Shown: positions 1 through 25,594 of the stretch, one piece after another | How positions within the stretch are numbered: the stretch's first letter is position 1 | Layout of the letters: each line of letters begins with the position of its first letter | Origin: Ignavibacteria bacterium | GTDB taxonomy: Bacteria > Bacteroidota > Ignavibacteria > Kapaibacteriales > UBA2268 | Assembly (NCBI GenBank): GCA_040383785.1 | Contig: JBEICW010000001.1 | Span: 1-29,289 of the forward strand | DNA length: 29,289 nucleotides | Direction: 5' to 3' | Position numbers and translations under genes: made by a program | The notes under the pieces: generated by a model | Database searches by the model: none | Told to the model about the DNA's origin: nothing | What the model saw: only the letters and a program-made list of their open reading frames with translations

Positions 1-469
1 CATAAGAAGTAAAATTTCCAACTATCGTTAAATTGCTCGTTACACCCGATGTTGTATTATTAAAACCTGTTCCCGAATAAAATGCAGGATTTAATAAACT
101 TGGTTGATATATATTCAGATTACCAAAAGTGTAATCTTGGTTGTAAGTGCCTATATAATCTTGTCCTAATTCTGTATAGGAGTTGAAATAACCGATTCCA
201 AGACCATTTAGTACATCAACTATTCCCTGATTGCTTTGAACTGGTAATAGACCACCAAAAGTAGAAAATACAGAAGCTCCGTTTATTTTGTATTGAACCA
301 ATACAGAAGTTTCTGTAGTAAATGTAAAACCAGTTACATTCCAACGAAACTCTCTCGTAGCGTTAGAAGTATCCAATAAATTTGCTGGACTACCAGCAAT
401 ACTTATCTGTTGTGGATAATTCCTATTGTTACGAATGTTTAATGATATATCAAGTTCGCTTAATGACAT
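1..469 (-). CDS. Putative virion/structural protein, runs off the window edge (partial)
   Basis: Own translation, absent from the ORF track: ATG at 469, open to base 2 (MSLSELDISLNIRNNRNYPQQISIAGSP...FYSGTGFNNTTSGVTSNLTIVGNFTSY). Beta-rich; the end resembles a delta-60 (DUF5122) repeat 'GTGFN...VGxFTSY'. Confidence 0.75.
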   Translation of the reverse strand, partial: MSLSELDISLNIRNNRNYPQQISIAGSPANLLDTSNATREFRWNVTGFTFTTETSVLVQYKINGASVFSTFGGLLPVQSNQGIVDVLNGLGIGYFNSYTELGQDYIGTYNQDYTFGNLNIYQPSLLNPAFYSGTGFNNTTSGVTSNLTIVGNFTSY

Positions 470-471
470 TT

Positions 472-609
472 TTAGTTGGTTTCAGCACTTGCTTTTTGGT
501 GTTTCACCTCTTGTTTTGAAATAGTTGGCTTTTGTCCTTGTTTCCAAATTAAATAACCTACAACCGCCACAGCACCTATTCCTAATAACATTTTTGTTTG
601 CTTGTTCAT
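472..609 (-). CDS. 45-aa single-pass membrane protein (N-terminal anchor)
   Basis: Own translation MNKQTKMLLGIGAVAVVGYLIWKQGQKP...; same anchor pattern as 7419, 7953 and 10293; packs tightly between neighbours. Confidence 0.75.
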   Translation of the reverse strand: MNKQTKMLLGIGAVAVVGYLIWKQGQKPTISKQEVKHQKASAETN

Positions 610-613
610 TTTT

Positions 614-916
614 TTATTTTTTTGTTTTGAATAGATAGATACCTAATGCAATTAGTCCAACACTTGCAACAATAACCCAAGTTTTACTATTTTTTTCCAT
701 AAAATCTTTTTCCAAAGGGGTAATTGTTGTTTTCGGACAAGGTTTATTAGCTTGTGTGAATGTTCCGTCTGGACATAACAGAAAACCCGATACTGGTTCA
801 TCATCTGTTATTGTTCCTCCTGCGTTTATACAAGGTGCTACTATACCATTAGCAACATCTGTTGTTCCGTCTTTACACTTTACTGTATCGAAAGGAAAGT
901 CAAATATATCTGCCAT
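614..916 (-). CDS. Cys-containing protein with C-terminal membrane anchor
   Basis: Four Cys (CKDG, CINAG, CPDG, KPCP); C-terminus WVIVASVGLIALGIYLFKTKK; A-rich leader. Confidence 0.8.
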   Translation of the reverse strand: MADIFDFPFDTVKCKDGTTDVANGIVAPCINAGGTITDDEPVSGFLLCPDGTFTQANKPCPKTTITPLEKDFMEKNSKTWVIVASVGLIALGIYLFKTKK

Positions 917-965
917 ATTTTTTTTTGTAAAAATATTGCTTTTTTAACATAATAACAACATTTGT

Positions 966-1012
966 TTTAACAACCGATTAACAACGTAATATCAGTTATC
1001 AATATACTTTTG
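966..1012 (+). promoter_or_regulatory. Bacteroidota-type promoter, TTTAACA...TACTTTTG
   Basis: TAnnTTTG at 1005-1012; TTTAACA at 966-972; ATG 4 nt after the box. Confidence 0.7.
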
Positions 1013-1016
1013 CTCT

Positions 1017-1172
1017 ATGAAATTAAAAGTAAAAGACAAGTCAATAGTATGTGAAGGCTGCCGTAAAAGGTACACTATTAACTTTTTGACTACTGATAAA
1101 GAAAAGAAATCAATTTGTACCTATTGCGGTAAACACAATACCTATAAAGTAAAGTTTTTAACAAGTGCTTAA
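1017..1172 (+). CDS. 51-aa zinc-ribbon protein
   Basis: Own translation MKLKVKDKSIVCEGCRKRY...ICTYCGKHN...; two CxxC pairs; directly behind a promoter. Confidence 0.75.
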   Translation: MKLKVKDKSIVCEGCRKRYTINFLTTDKEKKSICTYCGKHNTYKVKFLTSA

Positions 1173-1203
1173 CTACATCATTTATTATATCACTTTATCT
1201 TTG
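1157..1203 (+). promoter_or_regulatory. Bacteroidota-type promoter, TTTAACA...TATCTTTG
   Basis: TTTAACA at 1157-1163; TATCTTTG at 1196-1203; ATG at 1220. Confidence 0.6.
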
Positions 1204-23276: not shown

Positions 23277-23671
23277 AAAAAATTTTAACACTTTTATTTA
23301 TTGTATTTACACTAACAACATTTGCTCAAACAACAGCAGATGCTTACCGTGTTCAAATTGGTTATTGGAATAGATACAAAGAAAATTTTGAATGGAATGA
23401 AGCAATAGATTGTGATTTAACTTTTACTTTGGCTAAAACCTATATAAGTATTAATGACAGAGCCAATACTTTTTTAAGAATTATAAGTTGTGAGGGTGAA
23501 AGGAAGCAAGATAATTATATCAAAAACTCTTGGGTATGTTATGACGAAAAAAATAGAAGATGTATTTTTGGTATGACATATTATTCTGATGGAAAAATAT
23601 TGTATTCGGTTTTATACAACGATATTTGTTATCGATACCTAATTACAAAAACAGACAACTTTTACCAATAA
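23273..23671 (+). CDS. Secreted/periplasmic protein (Sec signal peptide)
   Basis: MKKILTLLFIVFTLTTFA/Q; Gln after the cleavage site. Confidence 0.8.
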   Translation: MKKILTLLFIVFTLTTFAQTTADAYRVQIGYWNRYKENFEWNEAIDCDLTFTLAKTYISINDRANTFLRIISCEGERKQDNYIKNSWVCYDEKNRRCIFGMTYYSDGKILYSVLYNDICYRYLITKTDNFYQ

Positions 23672-23687
23672 ACAATATAATTATATA

Positions 23688-23882
23688 ATGGAACAAATAA
23701 CTATAACAAGACTTACAGATAATACTTCTGAAATAAAAATATCTGGCGATATTGAAACTTTGGTTACTATGGTTTATTCTGCCATAAAACAGCACGAAAA
23801 AATAAAAGATATTTTTTTATCCGCAACTTCTTCTTATATGATAGATATATTGGAAGAACAAGAAAGAATTAGAATGAATTAA
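23688..23882 (+). CDS. Hypothetical protein
   Basis: 64 aa; A/T-rich leader. Confidence 0.65.
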   Translation: MEQITITRLTDNTSEIKISGDIETLVTMVYSAIKQHEKIKDIFLSATSSYMIDILEEQERIRMN

Positions 23883-23969
23883 ATGAAAATATTACAGTGG
23901 ATACGGCTTATTATTGTTTTAATTATATGTTTGCCCTTGATAATTTTTGCACTCGTAATTAAAAAATAG
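23883..23969 (+). CDS. 28-aa single-TM peptide
   Basis: Own translation MKILQWIRLIIVLIICLPLIIFALVIKK; starts right after the previous stop. Confidence 0.55.
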   Translation: MKILQWIRLIIVLIICLPLIIFALVIKK

Positions 23970-24653
23970 TTATTTATTATTTATAAGATAATATCCTAAT
24001 GATGCCGCAGCTAACCCCAATAAAGCAATAGGTATCGTATCATTTGTTTCGTATAGCTTGATATTATTTGATGACTCATTTTTACCGCCATCACCATCTG
24101 CATTTAAAAAGTTTGAACTTGCAGTTTTTTCAATTTCTTTATTTGATTGTTGAATAGATTCTATACTTGAGCCATAATTATAGAATTTACTTTTATTGGT
24201 AATTCTTTCCATTTCTTTGAAATTGTATAAATTCATTCCAAAAGAATTTGTAATCCTTTTAGATAAAAATTTAATCTGTAAATCTGTTTGTGGAAGAATT
24301 GTAGTTGATACACTTGAATTTCCATTTAGAATAATAGGTGTGGGTGTATTTGTTAAATCAACAACAATAGAGCCTGAAAATTGATAAGGGTCAACTGTTG
24401 TAACAATATTCGTTATATTTTGATTGCCACTAACATCAAATCTTTGGTAATTAATAACTCCTATAAGTTGAGCAGCACTTGTTGAATATAAGTAAAAGCC
24501 TTGCACATCATAAACTTGATTACCCAATGATTGCTTGAATTGTGCATAAGTAACACCAGCCGTATTCGTACCACCACTTGTACCGCTATCTTGTACTACG
24601 ACAGAAACGGCAGGGGTTGTATGATTTACTATTGTGGCATTAAATATGGGCAT
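23970..24653 (-). CDS. Beta-rich putative capsid-type (jelly-roll-like) protein with C-terminal membrane anchor
   Basis: About 140 aa of alternating beta pattern (YDVQGFYLYS...VINYQRFDVSGN...VDPYQFSGSIVVDL); tail IALLGLAAASLGYYLINNK. Fold is inferred. Confidence 0.6.
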   Translation of the reverse strand: MPIFNATIVNHTTPAVSVVVQDSGTSGGTNTAGVTYAQFKQSLGNQVYDVQGFYLYSTSAAQLIGVINYQRFDVSGNQNITNIVTTVDPYQFSGSIVVDLTNTPTPIILNGNSSVSTTILPQTDLQIKFLSKRITNSFGMNLYNFKEMERITNKSKFYNYGSSIESIQQSNKEIEKTASSNFLNADGDGGKNESSNNIKLYETNDTIPIALLGLAAASLGYYLINNK

Positions 24654-24982
24654 TACTTGGTAAGCATTATATTTCCAGAAACATCACAAACGATAAGCTT
24701 TTCGTCTTTTACATAACATCTCATTCCAAAATCTTTCATACACTCTTTATTAAGTTCTGTAAGACGGCTTGGAGATTCACCAGCTTTCATTGCTTCTGTA
24801 TAAGCAGTAGCAACTATTTCAGCGTTTTCCATAGTAGGTTTAACTGGTATTGCAGACGCATCAAAATCTTTTATAGGACTCGTTGTTGTTGGCGATGTTT
24901 TTGATTTAGGTCTTAATGCCCAAAACAATAAAAATCCTCCGCCAAAAATCAATGAGAATTTTAATAATTTTTCTTTGTTCAT
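24653..24982 (-). CDS. N-anchored membrane protein
   Basis: MNKEKLLKFSLIFGGGFLLFWALRPK. Confidence 0.8.
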   Translation of the reverse strand: MNKEKLLKFSLIFGGGFLLFWALRPKSKTSPTTTSPIKDFDASAIPVKPTMENAEIVATAYTEAMKAGESPSRLTELNKECMKDFGMRCYVKDEKLIVCDVSGNIMLTK

Positions 24983-24983
24983 T

Positions 24984-25316
24984 TTATTTTTCTTTTGATA
25001 TAAACCATAAGATACCGAAAATTGCTAAAATACCAGCAGCATAAATACCAACTCTTTTTACAGAATCTAATGTTTCAGCTTGTAGGTTGTTAATCTTCGC
25101 TGTTTTCATTTGTTCTTGTAGTCTATCATATTGGTCTGGTGTTAATACTCCACCTTTTGTAAGTACGCTATCAATGATGTTTTGAATATCATTTGAAGAA
25201 CTCAACAACTTTTGTTTAAGCTGTTCGCCTAATTTAGCATTTTCAGCATTCTTTTTGCTTTTAGATACTAATTCTTTGGCTTGACTCAATAATTTTTTAA
25301 TATCTTCTGTTAACAT
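24984..25316 (-). CDS. Helical protein with C-terminal membrane anchor
   Basis: Tail VGIYAAGILAIFGILWFISKEK. Confidence 0.8.
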   Translation of the reverse strand: MLTEDIKKLLSQAKELVSKSKKNAENAKLGEQLKQKLLSSSNDIQNIIDSVLTKGGVLTPDQYDRLQEQMKTAKINNLQAETLDSVKRVGIYAAGILAIFGILWFISKEK

Positions 25317-25594
25317 TACTTAAACTTTTGTTTTAAATATTCAACAAAAAGAGTAGCCAGAGTACCAATGCCAAACATATAGCCATACATCCAGTTAATC
25401 TTATTAGTCCATTTTTCTTTAACGCTTTCCAACGCTTCAAGTCTTGTTACAATACCTTGCTGTCCTAATTCTTTATTACCAACCAATGCCGTGTATATCT
25501 TGTTCATCTGTGTTTCCATTTGCTTTACACTTGCTGAAACACCATTAATTGTATCTTCAAGATTACTGACTTTGTTTTCTTGTTCCATACTCAT
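25316..25594 (-). CDS. Coiled-coil plus C-terminal TM protein (XhlA/holin-like architecture)
   Basis: Heptad N-half; WMYGYMFGIGTLATLFVEYLK. Confidence 0.7.
   Translation of the reverse strand: MSMEQENKVSNLEDTINGVSASVKQMETQMNKIYTALVGNKELGQQGIVTRLEALESVKEKWTNKINWMYGYMFGIGTLATLFVEYLKQKFK

Follow-up and report, generated by a model that had tools for sequence, protein, structure and literature searches.

What kind of element encodes 14 small membrane proteins on a single strand and yet no recognizable tail? The question is raised by a 29.3-kb contig (C1) from an Ignavibacteria bin, which we analysed over its entire length and refer to as the window. A preliminary description had listed 14 small anchored membrane ORFs, all on the minus strand, and read them as the signature of a tailless virus with an internal membrane. 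All 14 ORFs are present, and the six with an N-terminal anchor (starting at 472, 7419, 7953, 8955, 10293, and 24653) indeed combine a basic stretch, a Gly/Ala-rich hydrophobic segment of ~20 aa, an aromatic residue, and Lys. Among the eight ORFs thought to end in a hydrophobic tail, clear anchors followed by Lys were recovered in five (614, 6343, 10501, 23970, and 24984), whereas the other three are weaker: the C-tails of 8519 and 25316 are hydrophobic yet fall under a strict hydropathy cut-off, and 9322 is the weakest because it has only ~13 terminal hydrophobic residues and no Lys. Of 10 listed proteins checked against public assemblies, nine have been called as genes there.

Small ORFs with a single terminal hydrophobic segment account for 34 of 100 in C1 and the neighbouring contig C5 of the same bin, versus 122 of 1111 in the 112 other contigs of that bin, a 4-fold enrichment (Fisher p = 8e-9); for C-tail anchors the counts are 9/100 and 15/1111, respectively (p = 6e-5). 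C5 adds ~21 anchored proteins, so that the two contigs together account for 35 or more small bitopic membrane proteins. The N-termini are alike, with 7419 and 7953 being 64% identical over 31 aa and that of 472 matching those of 7953, 8955, and 10293 and recurring in C5 (7133-7405) and C569 (2039-2251). The resulting motif, M-N/K-K-x-T/I/L-K followed by a Gly-rich helix, an aromatic residue, and Lys, is common to two viruses.

C5 continues the genome of the window: the relative L003, which carries the genes of the right end of the window, matches C5 at 50-81% identity immediately beyond them. Contigs of relatives measure 95-135 kb, and further relatives reach 124-182 kb. A syntenic 95-kb relative was followed over nearly its whole length, and its sequence breaks off at an intragenic hexamer repeat; the window contains counterparts of genes from either end of it, and no structural module separates them. 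Since no genome of the lineage is closed and relatives reach up to 182 kb, unseen DNA could hold other structural genes. On balance, the window is somewhat likely to represent ~30% of a ~100-kb dsDNA genome of an uncultured freshwater virus, a judgment that covers the best explanation developed below as a whole. A Bacteroidota host is inferred from the binning, the absence of Shine-Dalgarno sites from the genes, and promoter-like TAnnTTTG boxes, which lie 12-27 nt upstream of five operon heads in the plus-strand block 11745..23882. 

Evidence for the nature of the element comes from a pair of genes on C5. The first encodes a 270-aa single-domain FtsK/HerA ATPase, which is also present in every relative examined and scores 26 bits against the Pfam DUF87/HerA profile (cut-off, 23.2 bits). 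The best 15 Foldseek matches of its structural model in the PDB are all B204 of STIV or STIV2 (E = 8.7e-6, TM 0.55-0.60), and VIA-align likewise places B204 first (Z 10.1, rmsd 3.3, 182 of 204 residues), ahead of DndH-C, VirB4, and HerA. These comparisons support assignment of the protein to the B204/A32-type family of packaging ATPases, with the reservation that the model itself is of moderate confidence (pLDDT 69). In the 95-kb relative, this ATPase is the sole plausible packaging protein with a P-loop.

Directly downstream of the ATPase gene lies a gene for a 240-aa protein, an adjacency retained at 63 of 63 metagenome loci; this fixed pair defines the lineage, which is large. The 240-aa protein is the product of the most conserved gene of the lineage, with 1423 homologs, of which the top 120 share 69% identity or more, and 508 representative clusters. 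Its AF2 model (pLDDT 84.7) consists of an N-terminal helix, a disordered linker, and an eight-stranded jelly roll; in structure comparisons it pairs best with jelly-roll capsid proteins of viruses and with TNF-like domains. Nevertheless, a capsid role has not been shown, because these similarities are weak and unspecific (best Z 6.0; Foldseek E ~1e-3) and extend to TNF/C1q-like and lectin folds.

Within the window, the 227-aa protein encoded at 23970..24653 (minus strand; 93 homologs) consists of a conserved N-domain of ~160 aa, a variable linker, and a C-terminal tail anchor. Profile comparison with the 240-aa jelly-roll family (HHalign probability 98.6%, E = 7e-16; reciprocal HMM matches of 3e-7 and 4e-11) identifies it as a tail-anchored paralog of the latter, and we propose that it serves, tethered to the membrane, as a vertex protein or a capsid-associated component. 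It is accompanied on the minus strand by a 109-aa N-anchored membrane protein (24653..24982), 50-58% identical to proteins at the same position in L003, L005, and L007; by a 110-aa coiled-coil protein with a tail anchor (24984..25316; TM 85-108), 29-40% identical to its counterparts at the same position in L003 and L005; and by a 92-aa protein with a moderately hydrophobic C-tail ending in KQKFK (25316..25594), for which no homolog was found in the fetched relatives and the exact sequence is absent from the protein collection. At the opposite end, the contig boundary cuts a gene on the minus strand (2..469) of which the N-terminal 156 aa remain. The product, a putative spike or receptor-binding-type protein, is 57-60% identical to that of the gene directly after the jelly-roll paralog in L003, L005, and L007; in relatives, an N-domain of ~120 aa is conserved and the C-terminal part varies (497-677 aa, DUF5122 repeats or poly-Thr linkers), and C569 bears a full-length strain variant. 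Next to it are a 45-aa N-anchored protein (472..609, minus; MNKQTK, a Gly-rich TM segment, and W-K) and a 100-aa Cys-rich protein (614..916, minus; a called gene in public assemblies) with a tail anchor at residues 77-99 ending in KTKK. Among the listed proteins, lineage-wide conservation is limited to 23970, 24653, 24984, and the anchor segment of 472.

The preliminary description had suggested weighing A32/FtsK-HerA ATPase and jelly-roll profiles against those of terminase, portal, and HK97 capsid proteins on the rest of the contig. There is no such remainder to search, because the window spans the whole contig, but the comparison fell in the predicted direction, with the ATPase and the jelly roll found on C5 and in every relative examined, and the structure predictions it called for returned B204 first and a jelly roll, respectively. 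In the window itself, Pfam and PHROG detected no terminase, portal, HK97, or tail family; no terminase, portal, HK97 capsid, tape measure, or tail match to these databases was obtained in ~95 kb of the relative either, and no HK97 capsid, large terminase, portal, tape measure, or tail gene on any bin contig assigned to the virus. Within the bin, the same searches placed such genes only on unrelated contigs, eight in number. The reading as a large tailless membrane virus is thus supported at the level of gene content, whereas the particle and its internal membrane remain inferences.

The tailed-phage-like accessory genes pointed out earlier are also real, and comprise those for RecT, a PD-(D/E)XK nuclease, DUF932, a DNA ligase, an L5 gp82-like protein, and a GH24 lysozyme. 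The plus-strand block 11745..23882, assigned to early functions, replication, and recombination by Pfam matches and by synteny and 54-69% identity with relatives, encodes an ATP-dependent DNA ligase, DUF932 and L5 gp82-like proteins, a GT2 glycosyltransferase, a PD-(D/E)XK nuclease, and RecT, as well as a conserved pair of 311-aa and 235-aa products. Tailed phages typically carry genes for RecT, such a nuclease, DUF932, and L5 gp82-like proteins, and the element could instead be a member of the Caudoviricetes with head, tail, and terminase genes that are unsequenced or too divergent for Pfam and PHROG; the membrane proteins would then serve accessory roles in lysis, exclusion, or host takeover. 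Indeed, the genome is not closed, relatives reach 124-182 kb, several large proteins (609, 682, 426, and 293 aa) belong to no family, and the terminase, portal, and HK97 genes of the bin sit on short contigs of unknown linkage. However, a reverse search found no gene in common between those terminase and portal contigs and the 95-kb relative, and the large unknown proteins are repeat-rich, acidic, or coiled-coil, none being terminase-like; Walker A-like strings occur in just two of them, of 682 and 724 aa, and there fall within repeat regions. Furthermore, homologs of genes from the two ends of the relative lie together in the window with no head-tail module in between, and the pair of B204-like ATPase and jelly roll has no role in known tailed phages. 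We therefore regard a tailed phage as improbable.

Polyvalent proteins and many membrane proteins are also found in conjugative elements, and in the structural comparison of the ATPase, VirB4, HerA, TrwB, and DndH-C lie within ~1-3 Z units of B204. A large plasmid, or a conjugative or vesicle-borne element, in which the HerA/FtsK ATPase moves DNA through an apparatus of small membrane proteins, would account for the polyvalent proteins (ART-PolyVal, LPD23, and an SNF2-like helicase) and the several wall hydrolases, both common in conjugative elements, and for the absence of direct capsid evidence. Yet the precomputed Pfam lists for ~95 kb contain no relaxase, coupling-protein, or VirB4-size ATPase family, and the ATPase is, like B204, a single-domain protein of 270 aa. 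The most conserved gene of the lineage being the adjacent jelly roll, the spike-type gene with its constant N-domain and variable C-terminus, the endolysin-type genes, and the inclusion of one relative in IMG/VR also speak against a non-viral element, which appears to us very unlikely.

If the element is a virus of the tailless jelly-roll type, it remains to be asked whether its small membrane proteins belong to the virion. No homolog was found in the fetched relatives for 10 of the 14 listed proteins (614 and the block 6343-11673), and these may be accessory rather than structural. The block, all on the minus strand, encodes a GH24 phage lysozyme (6343..7020; Pfam Phage_lysozyme, 1.8e-17; PHROG endolysin, 4e-20) with a tail anchor (TM residues 200-221, KKKK end); a 142-aa holin-like candidate with four TM helices (6984..7412), recognized by hydropathy only and without a Pfam or PHROG family match; N-anchored membrane proteins of 163 aa (7419..7910), 175 aa (7953..8480; Cys-rich), and 68 aa (10293..10499); a 126-aa protein with a hydrophobic C-tail ending in NKKN (8519..8899); a 118-aa N-anchored protein with a weak bacterial SH3 domain (8955..9311; Pfam SH3_3, 2.5e-5, below the curated cut-off); a 124-aa His/Cys candidate of NlpC/P60- or LRAT-like type with a short hydrophobic C-terminus (9322..9696; no Pfam or PHROG match); a soluble Fe/Mn superoxide dismutase (9693..10292; Pfam Sod_Fe_C, 7.6e-36, and Sod_Fe_N, 1.1e-12); and a 390-aa protein with two internal tandem repeats (units of 21-22 aa; 63 and 66 nt) and a tail anchor (10501..11673; TM 363-390). 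Adjoining the block is a PAS-PAS protein with two C-terminal TM helices (4986..6104, minus; Pfam PAS_3/PAS_9, ~1e-23), 83% identical to the product of a gene in the relative, in which a 400-aa tail-anchored repeat protein is encoded ~2.5 kb from the PAS gene, on the same side of it as 10501..11673. This mixture of lysozyme, holin-like, SH3-like, NlpC-like, and dismutase genes, its absence from the fetched relatives, and the regulatory function suggested by the PAS-TM sensor would suit proteins that act in the membrane of the infected cell to time lysis, exclude superinfecting viruses, remodel the wall, or sense redox state and signals. That most of the 14 are such non-virion proteins nonetheless seems unlikely to us, considering that proteins encoded among the ATPase and jelly-roll genes of both C5 and the relative carry the same N-anchor motif, and that 24653 and 24984 are conserved beside the jelly-roll paralog.

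Collectively, we consider a large tailless, membrane-lined virus with a jelly-roll coat-type protein and an FtsK/HerA motor the probable, if far from certain, explanation. A membrane-containing particle, the placement of the small membrane proteins within it, and the Bacteroidota host are all inferred, without particle, lipid, or host evidence. The minus-strand blocks would then comprise late, particle-building genes. By analogy with PRD1 (reviewed in PMC6356626), the small anchored proteins would enter the cytoplasmic membrane of the host and there designate a patch specific to the virus. Jelly-roll capsomers could assemble on this patch into a membrane-lined procapsid, into which the ATPase would pump DNA via one vertex; the tail-anchored paralog (23970-24653) might link a vertex, or else the spike encoded at 2-469, to the membrane, and wall hydrolases with a membrane anchor, the GH24 lysozyme among them, may work at entry or exit.

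Known tailless viruses with an internal membrane share parts of this design. The closest structural match of the ATPase, the small single-domain FtsK/HerA NTPase B204, comes from STIV and STIV2 (Turriviridae). STIV has an archaeal host, a ~17-kb genome, and a double jelly-roll capsid protein; B204 and the C5 ATPase, however, are only 17-19% identical in sequence, and no double jelly-roll protein was found in the new lineage, for which the PRD1 P3 family was searched without a working control. PRD1 (Tectiviridae) possesses a ~15-kb linear genome, terminal proteins, a protein-primed polymerase, and the double jelly-roll P3, and none of these has been shown in the new lineage, which resembles PRD1 in its many small membrane proteins, packaging ATPase, and lytic enzymes. 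In PRD1, these are many small virus-encoded membrane proteins, the ATPase P9 at a unique vertex, and virion lytic enzymes, next to a jelly-roll penton-base spike (PMC6356626). Viruses of the P23-77/SH1 type share with the new lineage the adjacency of single jelly-roll and FtsK/HerA ATPase genes. They carry two adjacent coat genes in genomes of ~17-31 kb, whereas here one jelly-roll gene follows the ATPase and the paralog is membrane-anchored and lies ~20 kb away; their coat proteins were not among the structural matches listed. Single jelly-roll coats, an FtsK/HerA ATPase, an internal membrane, and coat genes beside the ATPase are described for viruses of the P23-77, IN93, SH1, HHIV-2, and HCIV-1 type in PMC6356626 and PMC6414509. 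The Finnlakeviridae FLiP and phiCjT23 yielded weak jelly-roll matches (FLiP MCP, Z 5.3; phiCjT23, Z 5.1), but they are not known to have a B204-like packaging ATPase and have ssDNA rather than the dsDNA proposed here; both are tailless membrane-containing Flavobacterium phages with ~9-kb genomes and a double jelly-roll coat (PMC7654751).

If our reading is correct, the ~100-kb genome is several times the size of that of any described tailless membrane-lined bacterial virus. The largest cultured tailless membrane-containing phage, SSIP-1, has a circular genome of 43.8 kb, less than half that size; the host was at that time assigned to Bacteroidetes, and the phage is reported to have two types of coat protein (PMC6356626). 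The six-frame translation of SSIP-1 gave no match to the profiles of the ATPase, the jelly roll, or the paralog, and none was found for the lineage in 50,697 GenBank phage records, including no sequence match at E ≤ 1.

The window ends in a glycosylation and sulfation module (25666..29257, minus strand), in which Pfam recognizes DUF2061, cytidylyltransferase-like, APS-kinase-like, two sulfotransferase, and GT9-like (290 aa) genes. The module is syntenic in L003, L005, and L007, and a copy lies directly upstream of the packaging ATPase in the 95-kb relative. Binning is unreliable, one relative having been placed in a 'Chlamydiae' MAG. Metagenomes of drinking water, freshwater, and sediment, generated in several studies, contain near-identical DNA.

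Our analysis supports the reading put forward in the preliminary description, a large, tailless, membrane-containing virus, and does so through positive markers rather than through the absence of tailed-phage genes alone. We consider this reading probable; it remains a genomic inference without a closed genome and without particle, lipid or host evidence, and the coat-fold match is generic. Much of the support lies outside the window. In the syntenic relative L003, the genes to the left of the sulfation/membrane-protein module match C5, a 20.8-kb contig of the same bin, at 50–81% identity, so that C5 carries the genome on past the right end of the window. 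C5 is transcribed nearly entirely on one strand and encodes approximately 21 further anchored small proteins with the N-terminal motif seen in the window, three wall hydrolases, a 270-aa P-loop ATPase and, immediately downstream of the latter, a 240-aa beta-rich protein. The ATPase matches Pfam DUF87, the HerA central domain, above the curated cut-off. With its AF2 model, in which confidence is moderate (pLDDT 69), the 15 best PDB chains by Foldseek were without exception B204, the NTPase that packages the STIV/STIV2 genome (E 8.7e-6, TM 0.55–0.60), and VIA-align against 48,161 chains also placed B204 first (Z 10.1, rmsd 3.3, 182/204 residues), followed by other members of the FtsK/HerA superfamily (DndH-C, VirB4, HerA, and TrwB). 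The C5 gene thus supplies the A32/B204/P9-type FtsK-HerA packaging ATPase of Varidnaviria-type tailless viruses. Homologs number 701, the best 120 of which are 69–86% identical. Against PDB sequences, the ATPase and jelly-roll profiles gave nothing but noise apart from a marginal match to the Walker A region of HerA (E 0.11).

The 240-aa protein has 1423 homologs, the best 120 of them at 69–92% identity, and its family falls into 508 representative clusters at 50% identity. An AF2 model built on a 104-sequence alignment (pLDDT 84.7) predicts a helix at the N-terminus, then a disordered linker rich in Gly, Asn and Gln, and an eight-stranded jelly roll spanning residues 57–225. The structural matches were all jelly rolls, weak and generic (best Z 6.0), and included viral ones (CPMV small subunit, nepovirus and picornavirus coat domains, PR772 chain O, PM2 chain L, FLiP MCP, and STMV) as well as TNF/C1q-like and nucleoplasmin folds; fold searches of BFVD and the ESM Atlas with the model returned generic beta-sandwiches only. 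The jelly-roll fold is thus supported by the model, and a capsid role is inferred from the extreme conservation of the protein and its position after the ATPase, its orientation in a shell, vertical in the major capsid protein of Varidnaviria-type viruses, not being derivable from the model. In all 63 metagenome loci with room for it, the gene lies immediately downstream of the ATPase gene on the same strand, and the pair offers a conserved marker for surveys. The gap between the two genes is non-coding, has a median length of ~385 bp and is kept in 63/63 loci (L021–L101; 10174–10517 on C5); a strong late promoter or a leader may lie there. In a 182-kb relative (L011, JAWVGW010000045.1), an IS605 OrfB/Cas12f-like TnpB gene (4854–6050) sits within the late block, ~2.7 kb upstream of the ATPase.

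A second jelly-roll protein is encoded in the window itself. The 227-aa protein at 23970–24653 (minus strand) has 93 homologs on contigs of up to 135 kb; in these proteins, a variable linker joins a conserved N-domain of ~160 aa to a tail anchor. Its family is homologous to the 240-aa family (HHalign 98.6%, E 7e-16; reciprocal HMM matches at 3e-7 and 4e-11), and hence one of the small membrane proteins singled out in the preliminary description is a membrane-anchored paralog of the jelly-roll protein. The neighborhoods of the homologs are syntenic with the window and comprise, in this order, GT9-like, sulfotransferase, APS kinase-like, cytidylyltransferase-like and DUF2061 genes, 3–4 small membrane proteins and the 227-aa homolog, followed by a 497–677-aa protein whose N-domain matches window 2–469 and then by a RecT block on the opposite strand. 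In the relatives, the paralog gene adjoins a gene whose product combines a conserved N-domain with a hypervariable C-terminus, which, as far as sequence can tell, is the pattern of a receptor-binding spike. A relationship between this putative spike N-domain and the jelly-roll proteins was rejected, the two being unrelated when compared through the jelly-roll profile. C569, a strain variant of the left end of the window (1–609), has the 45/70-aa anchor protein and the spike N-domain in common with it, but encodes the spike at its full length of 477 aa; the assembly of the window probably broke at the variable spike C-terminus. Taking as an analogy the assembly model of PRD1, as set out in PMC6356626, we propose that the tail-anchored paralog would tether a vertex or spike to the membrane. 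It would thereby merge the roles that PRD1 divides between the penton and its membrane linker, and a membrane-tethered jelly-roll protein of this kind could explain how the shell is coupled to its membrane.

The small membrane proteins that first suggested such a virus bear re-examination well. All 14 ORFs are present on the minus strand, and the six described as N-anchored do begin with a short basic stretch that leads into a Gly/Ala-rich hydrophobic helix followed by an aromatic residue and Lys; these N-termini are alike, those at 7419 and 7953 being 64% identical over 31 aa. The eight hydrophobic C-terminal tails are likewise present and mostly followed by Lys, but they are unequal, that at 9322 being the weakest and those at 8519 and 25316 moderate. 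Small ORFs with one terminal hydrophobic segment make up 34/100 in C1 (the window) and C5 against 122/1111 in the 112 other bin contigs (p 8e-9), and tail anchors 9/100 against 15/1111 (p 6e-5). Together, the two contigs encode at least 35 small anchored proteins, which are commoner there than in the rest of the bin. An internal lipid membrane in the particle is inferred from this enrichment, which is only indirect evidence. None of the 14 proteins matched a Pfam or PHROG family, except for a GH24 lysozyme domain (6343–7020) and a weak SH3 match (8955–9311). Nine of the 10 proteins checked are annotated as genes in public assemblies, and the exact sequence of 25316–25594 was absent from the protein collection. 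Most of the membrane proteins of the window are lineage-specific and may be accessories. The shared N-anchor motif provides a handle and may be a sorting signal. Unlike SAR endolysins, in which the membrane anchor is N-terminal, the GH24 lysozyme is anchored at its C-terminus; the hydrolases contributed by C5 are glucosaminidase-, M15- and GH108-like.

The absence of terminase, portal and tail genes, noted in the preliminary description for the window, holds over a far longer stretch. A syntenic metagenome contig of 95,047 bp was walked nearly end to end, positions 1–79,682 directly and ~15 kb more through another contig that is identical over 10.8 kb, and its precomputed Pfam lists (~95 kb) contain no terminase, portal, tail or HK97 capsid gene. 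Nor did large terminase, portal or HK97-fold capsid match on C1, C5, C49, C69, C252, C263, C266 or C418, the bin contigs that map to this relative and sum to ~90 kb. The ten largest unknown proteins of the relative, which are repeat-rich, acidic or coiled-coil, showed nothing structural when scanned directly against PHROG and Pfam. As annotated, its P-loop proteins comprise a UvrD helicase, the 271-aa ATPase, an APS kinase-like protein and an AAA protein, and the remaining Walker A-like strings fall in a small 139-aa protein and in repeat regions of a 682-aa and a 724-aa protein. A tailed phage with genes that went unseen is nonetheless conceivable, given that the genome is not closed and the absence is valid for the sampled DNA only. 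One end of the relative stops in a hexamer repeat within a gene, and circular closure was rejected since its two ends have no sequence in common. When the whole bin was searched in six frames, matches to Terminase_6N/6C, HK97 and portal families were confined to eight short contigs, none of which has a gene in common with the relative. Moreover, homologs of genes from both ends of the relative occur in the window (2213–2524 and 17031–18708) without a head-tail module between them, and we regard a tailed phage (Caudoviricetes) as unlikely. Without particle evidence, a non-viral element might also be invoked; relaxase, coupling protein and VirB4-type ATPase, the genes expected of conjugative elements, are absent from the relative's precomputed Pfam matches, for which no dedicated profiles were used, and we consider such an element quite improbable. 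As for the Bamfordvirae/Tectiliviricetes (PRD1, PM2, and Bam35), the double-jelly-roll families PF09018 and PF04451 had no match in the bin by sequence profile, on which alone the result rests for the unknown proteins of 260–680 aa; the PF09018 control likewise matched nowhere.

The genomes of tailless, membrane-containing viruses so far described from bacteria and archaea measure ~10–31 kb in classified viruses and 44 kb in SSIP-1. Megablast with 25 kb gave no match to GenBank phages, and by tblastn the 50,697 GenBank phage records contained nothing similar to the 227-aa protein, the ATPase or the jelly-roll protein, for the latter two even at E ≤ 1. IMG/VR yielded no match to the 227-aa protein alone and one 37.6-kb contig to its alignment, and the IMG/VR relatives of the 458-aa protein (2839–4215) have just that one gene in common with the window. 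Searches of a six-frame translation of SSIP-1 (JN880423) with the profiles of the ATPase, the jelly-roll protein and its paralog gave nothing below E 0.7; the core proteins thus lack the detectable sequence similarity to SSIP-1 that would place the lineage among SSIP-1-like phages. Atlas feature searches gave no usable match, and our literature search found no description of such a lineage. In Helvetiavirae-type viruses (P23-77, SH1), two single jelly-roll coat genes adjoin the ATPase gene, whereas here there is one, in 63/63 loci, and the only conserved jelly-roll paralog is distant and tail-anchored. P23-77, IN93 and SSIP-1 each have two types of coat protein, according to PMC6356626. We tentatively suggest that the lineage could constitute a family-level or higher group of tailless, membrane-lined bacterial viruses of 95–135 kb or more, abundant in fresh water and present also in marine data, with a single-jelly-roll shell and the membrane-tethered paralog at the vertices. 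If so, the genome would be three- to sixfold larger than in any prokaryotic virus of this architecture described so far, a widespread lineage of ~100 kb would mean that the architecture can grow in prokaryotic viruses as it has in the giant viruses of eukaryotes, and a common freshwater virus group would have been overlooked by standard phage annotation, which is based on terminase, portal and HK97.

The end of the late block (L014/L015, positions 59998–73829 of the 95-kb record; C49) encodes very large polyvalent-type proteins, including a 1534-aa SNF2-like helicase, a 724-aa LPD23 protein, an AAA protein and one 1267-aa protein that combines acetyltransferase, ART-PolyVal and DUF5661 domains; these large proteins may be packaged and injected. 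The virus contigs carry a hydrophobic-Ala-x-Gly-Gly motif 0.84 times per 1000 aa, compared with 0.12 times elsewhere in the bin. Its copies cluster, several to a protein, in the polyvalent protein, repeat proteins and those with a MLPFILAAVGGYFIG start (C5 6359–6622, 16708–17346 and 17343–17990; C49, C266, C263, C418 and C569; L014 11723–13771 and 15132–16961). Adenoviruses cleave proteins at Gly-Gly sites, and the motif, comparable to the cleavage sites of adenovirus and ASFV, looks like a protease processing site, with no protease assigned. By this analogy, the lineage may process packaged polyvalent and core-like proteins in adenovirus fashion.

C1 is the largest contig (29,289 bp, GC 0.30) of a bin of 671 contigs and 3.6 Mb, rated 94% complete. 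Its minus-strand gene blocks (2–916, 4986–11673, and 23970–29257) alternate with plus-strand blocks (1220–4979 and 11745–23882), the coding strand being tracked by GC and AT skew, and neither tRNAs nor Rfam families were found in it. In the gene of a 390-aa tail-anchored protein, 10814–10960 and 11366–11548 are near-perfect tandem repeats with units of 63 and 66 nt. A sulfotransferase/APS-kinase-like/cytidylyltransferase-like/DUF2061 module lies within the late operon (25666–29257; 6291–8141 on L012, a piece of the 95-kb relative), and that relative has a copy immediately upstream of the packaging ATPase; this placement suggests that particle components may bear sulfated glycans. TAnnTTTG boxes stand 12–27 nt upstream of seven operon heads. 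Overall, the box is not enriched (54 observed against 56 expected), so that only its placement counts, as suggestive evidence. At plus-strand operon heads, a TTGAT-N(6-15)-ATCAA inverted repeat lies just 5' of the box (12240–12300, 14100–14160, and 15600–15660).

These boxes, a Shine-Dalgarno-like core in only 1/59 window genes and a SusD-family gene in the bin (among the controls, SusD matched only in Bacteroides) make a Bacteroidota host likely, an assignment that rests on binning, which probably misplaced one relative (L021, below). Several studies of drinking water, fresh water and sediment yielded metagenomes with near-identical DNA, the drinking-water and freshwater runs containing 0.6–0.95 of the window's words, with no RNA datasets listed among the sequencing runs; more distant relatives occur in many lake metagenomes and Tara data. 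A marine habitat was dropped from consideration, the sequencing-run search and lake metagenome matches pointing mainly to fresh water. A scan of GTDB found one 14-kb contig of the lineage (L021, VGMA01000028.1; ATPase 78% identical) in a MAG labelled Chlamydiae bacterium, probably a binning error. Finally, the bin seems to hold a second, more distant virus of the same type, represented by C417, with an ATPase at 38% identity, by C111, with a spike homolog and a jelly-roll-like ORF (profile match at 1e-4), and by C2 and C51, with weaker homologs.
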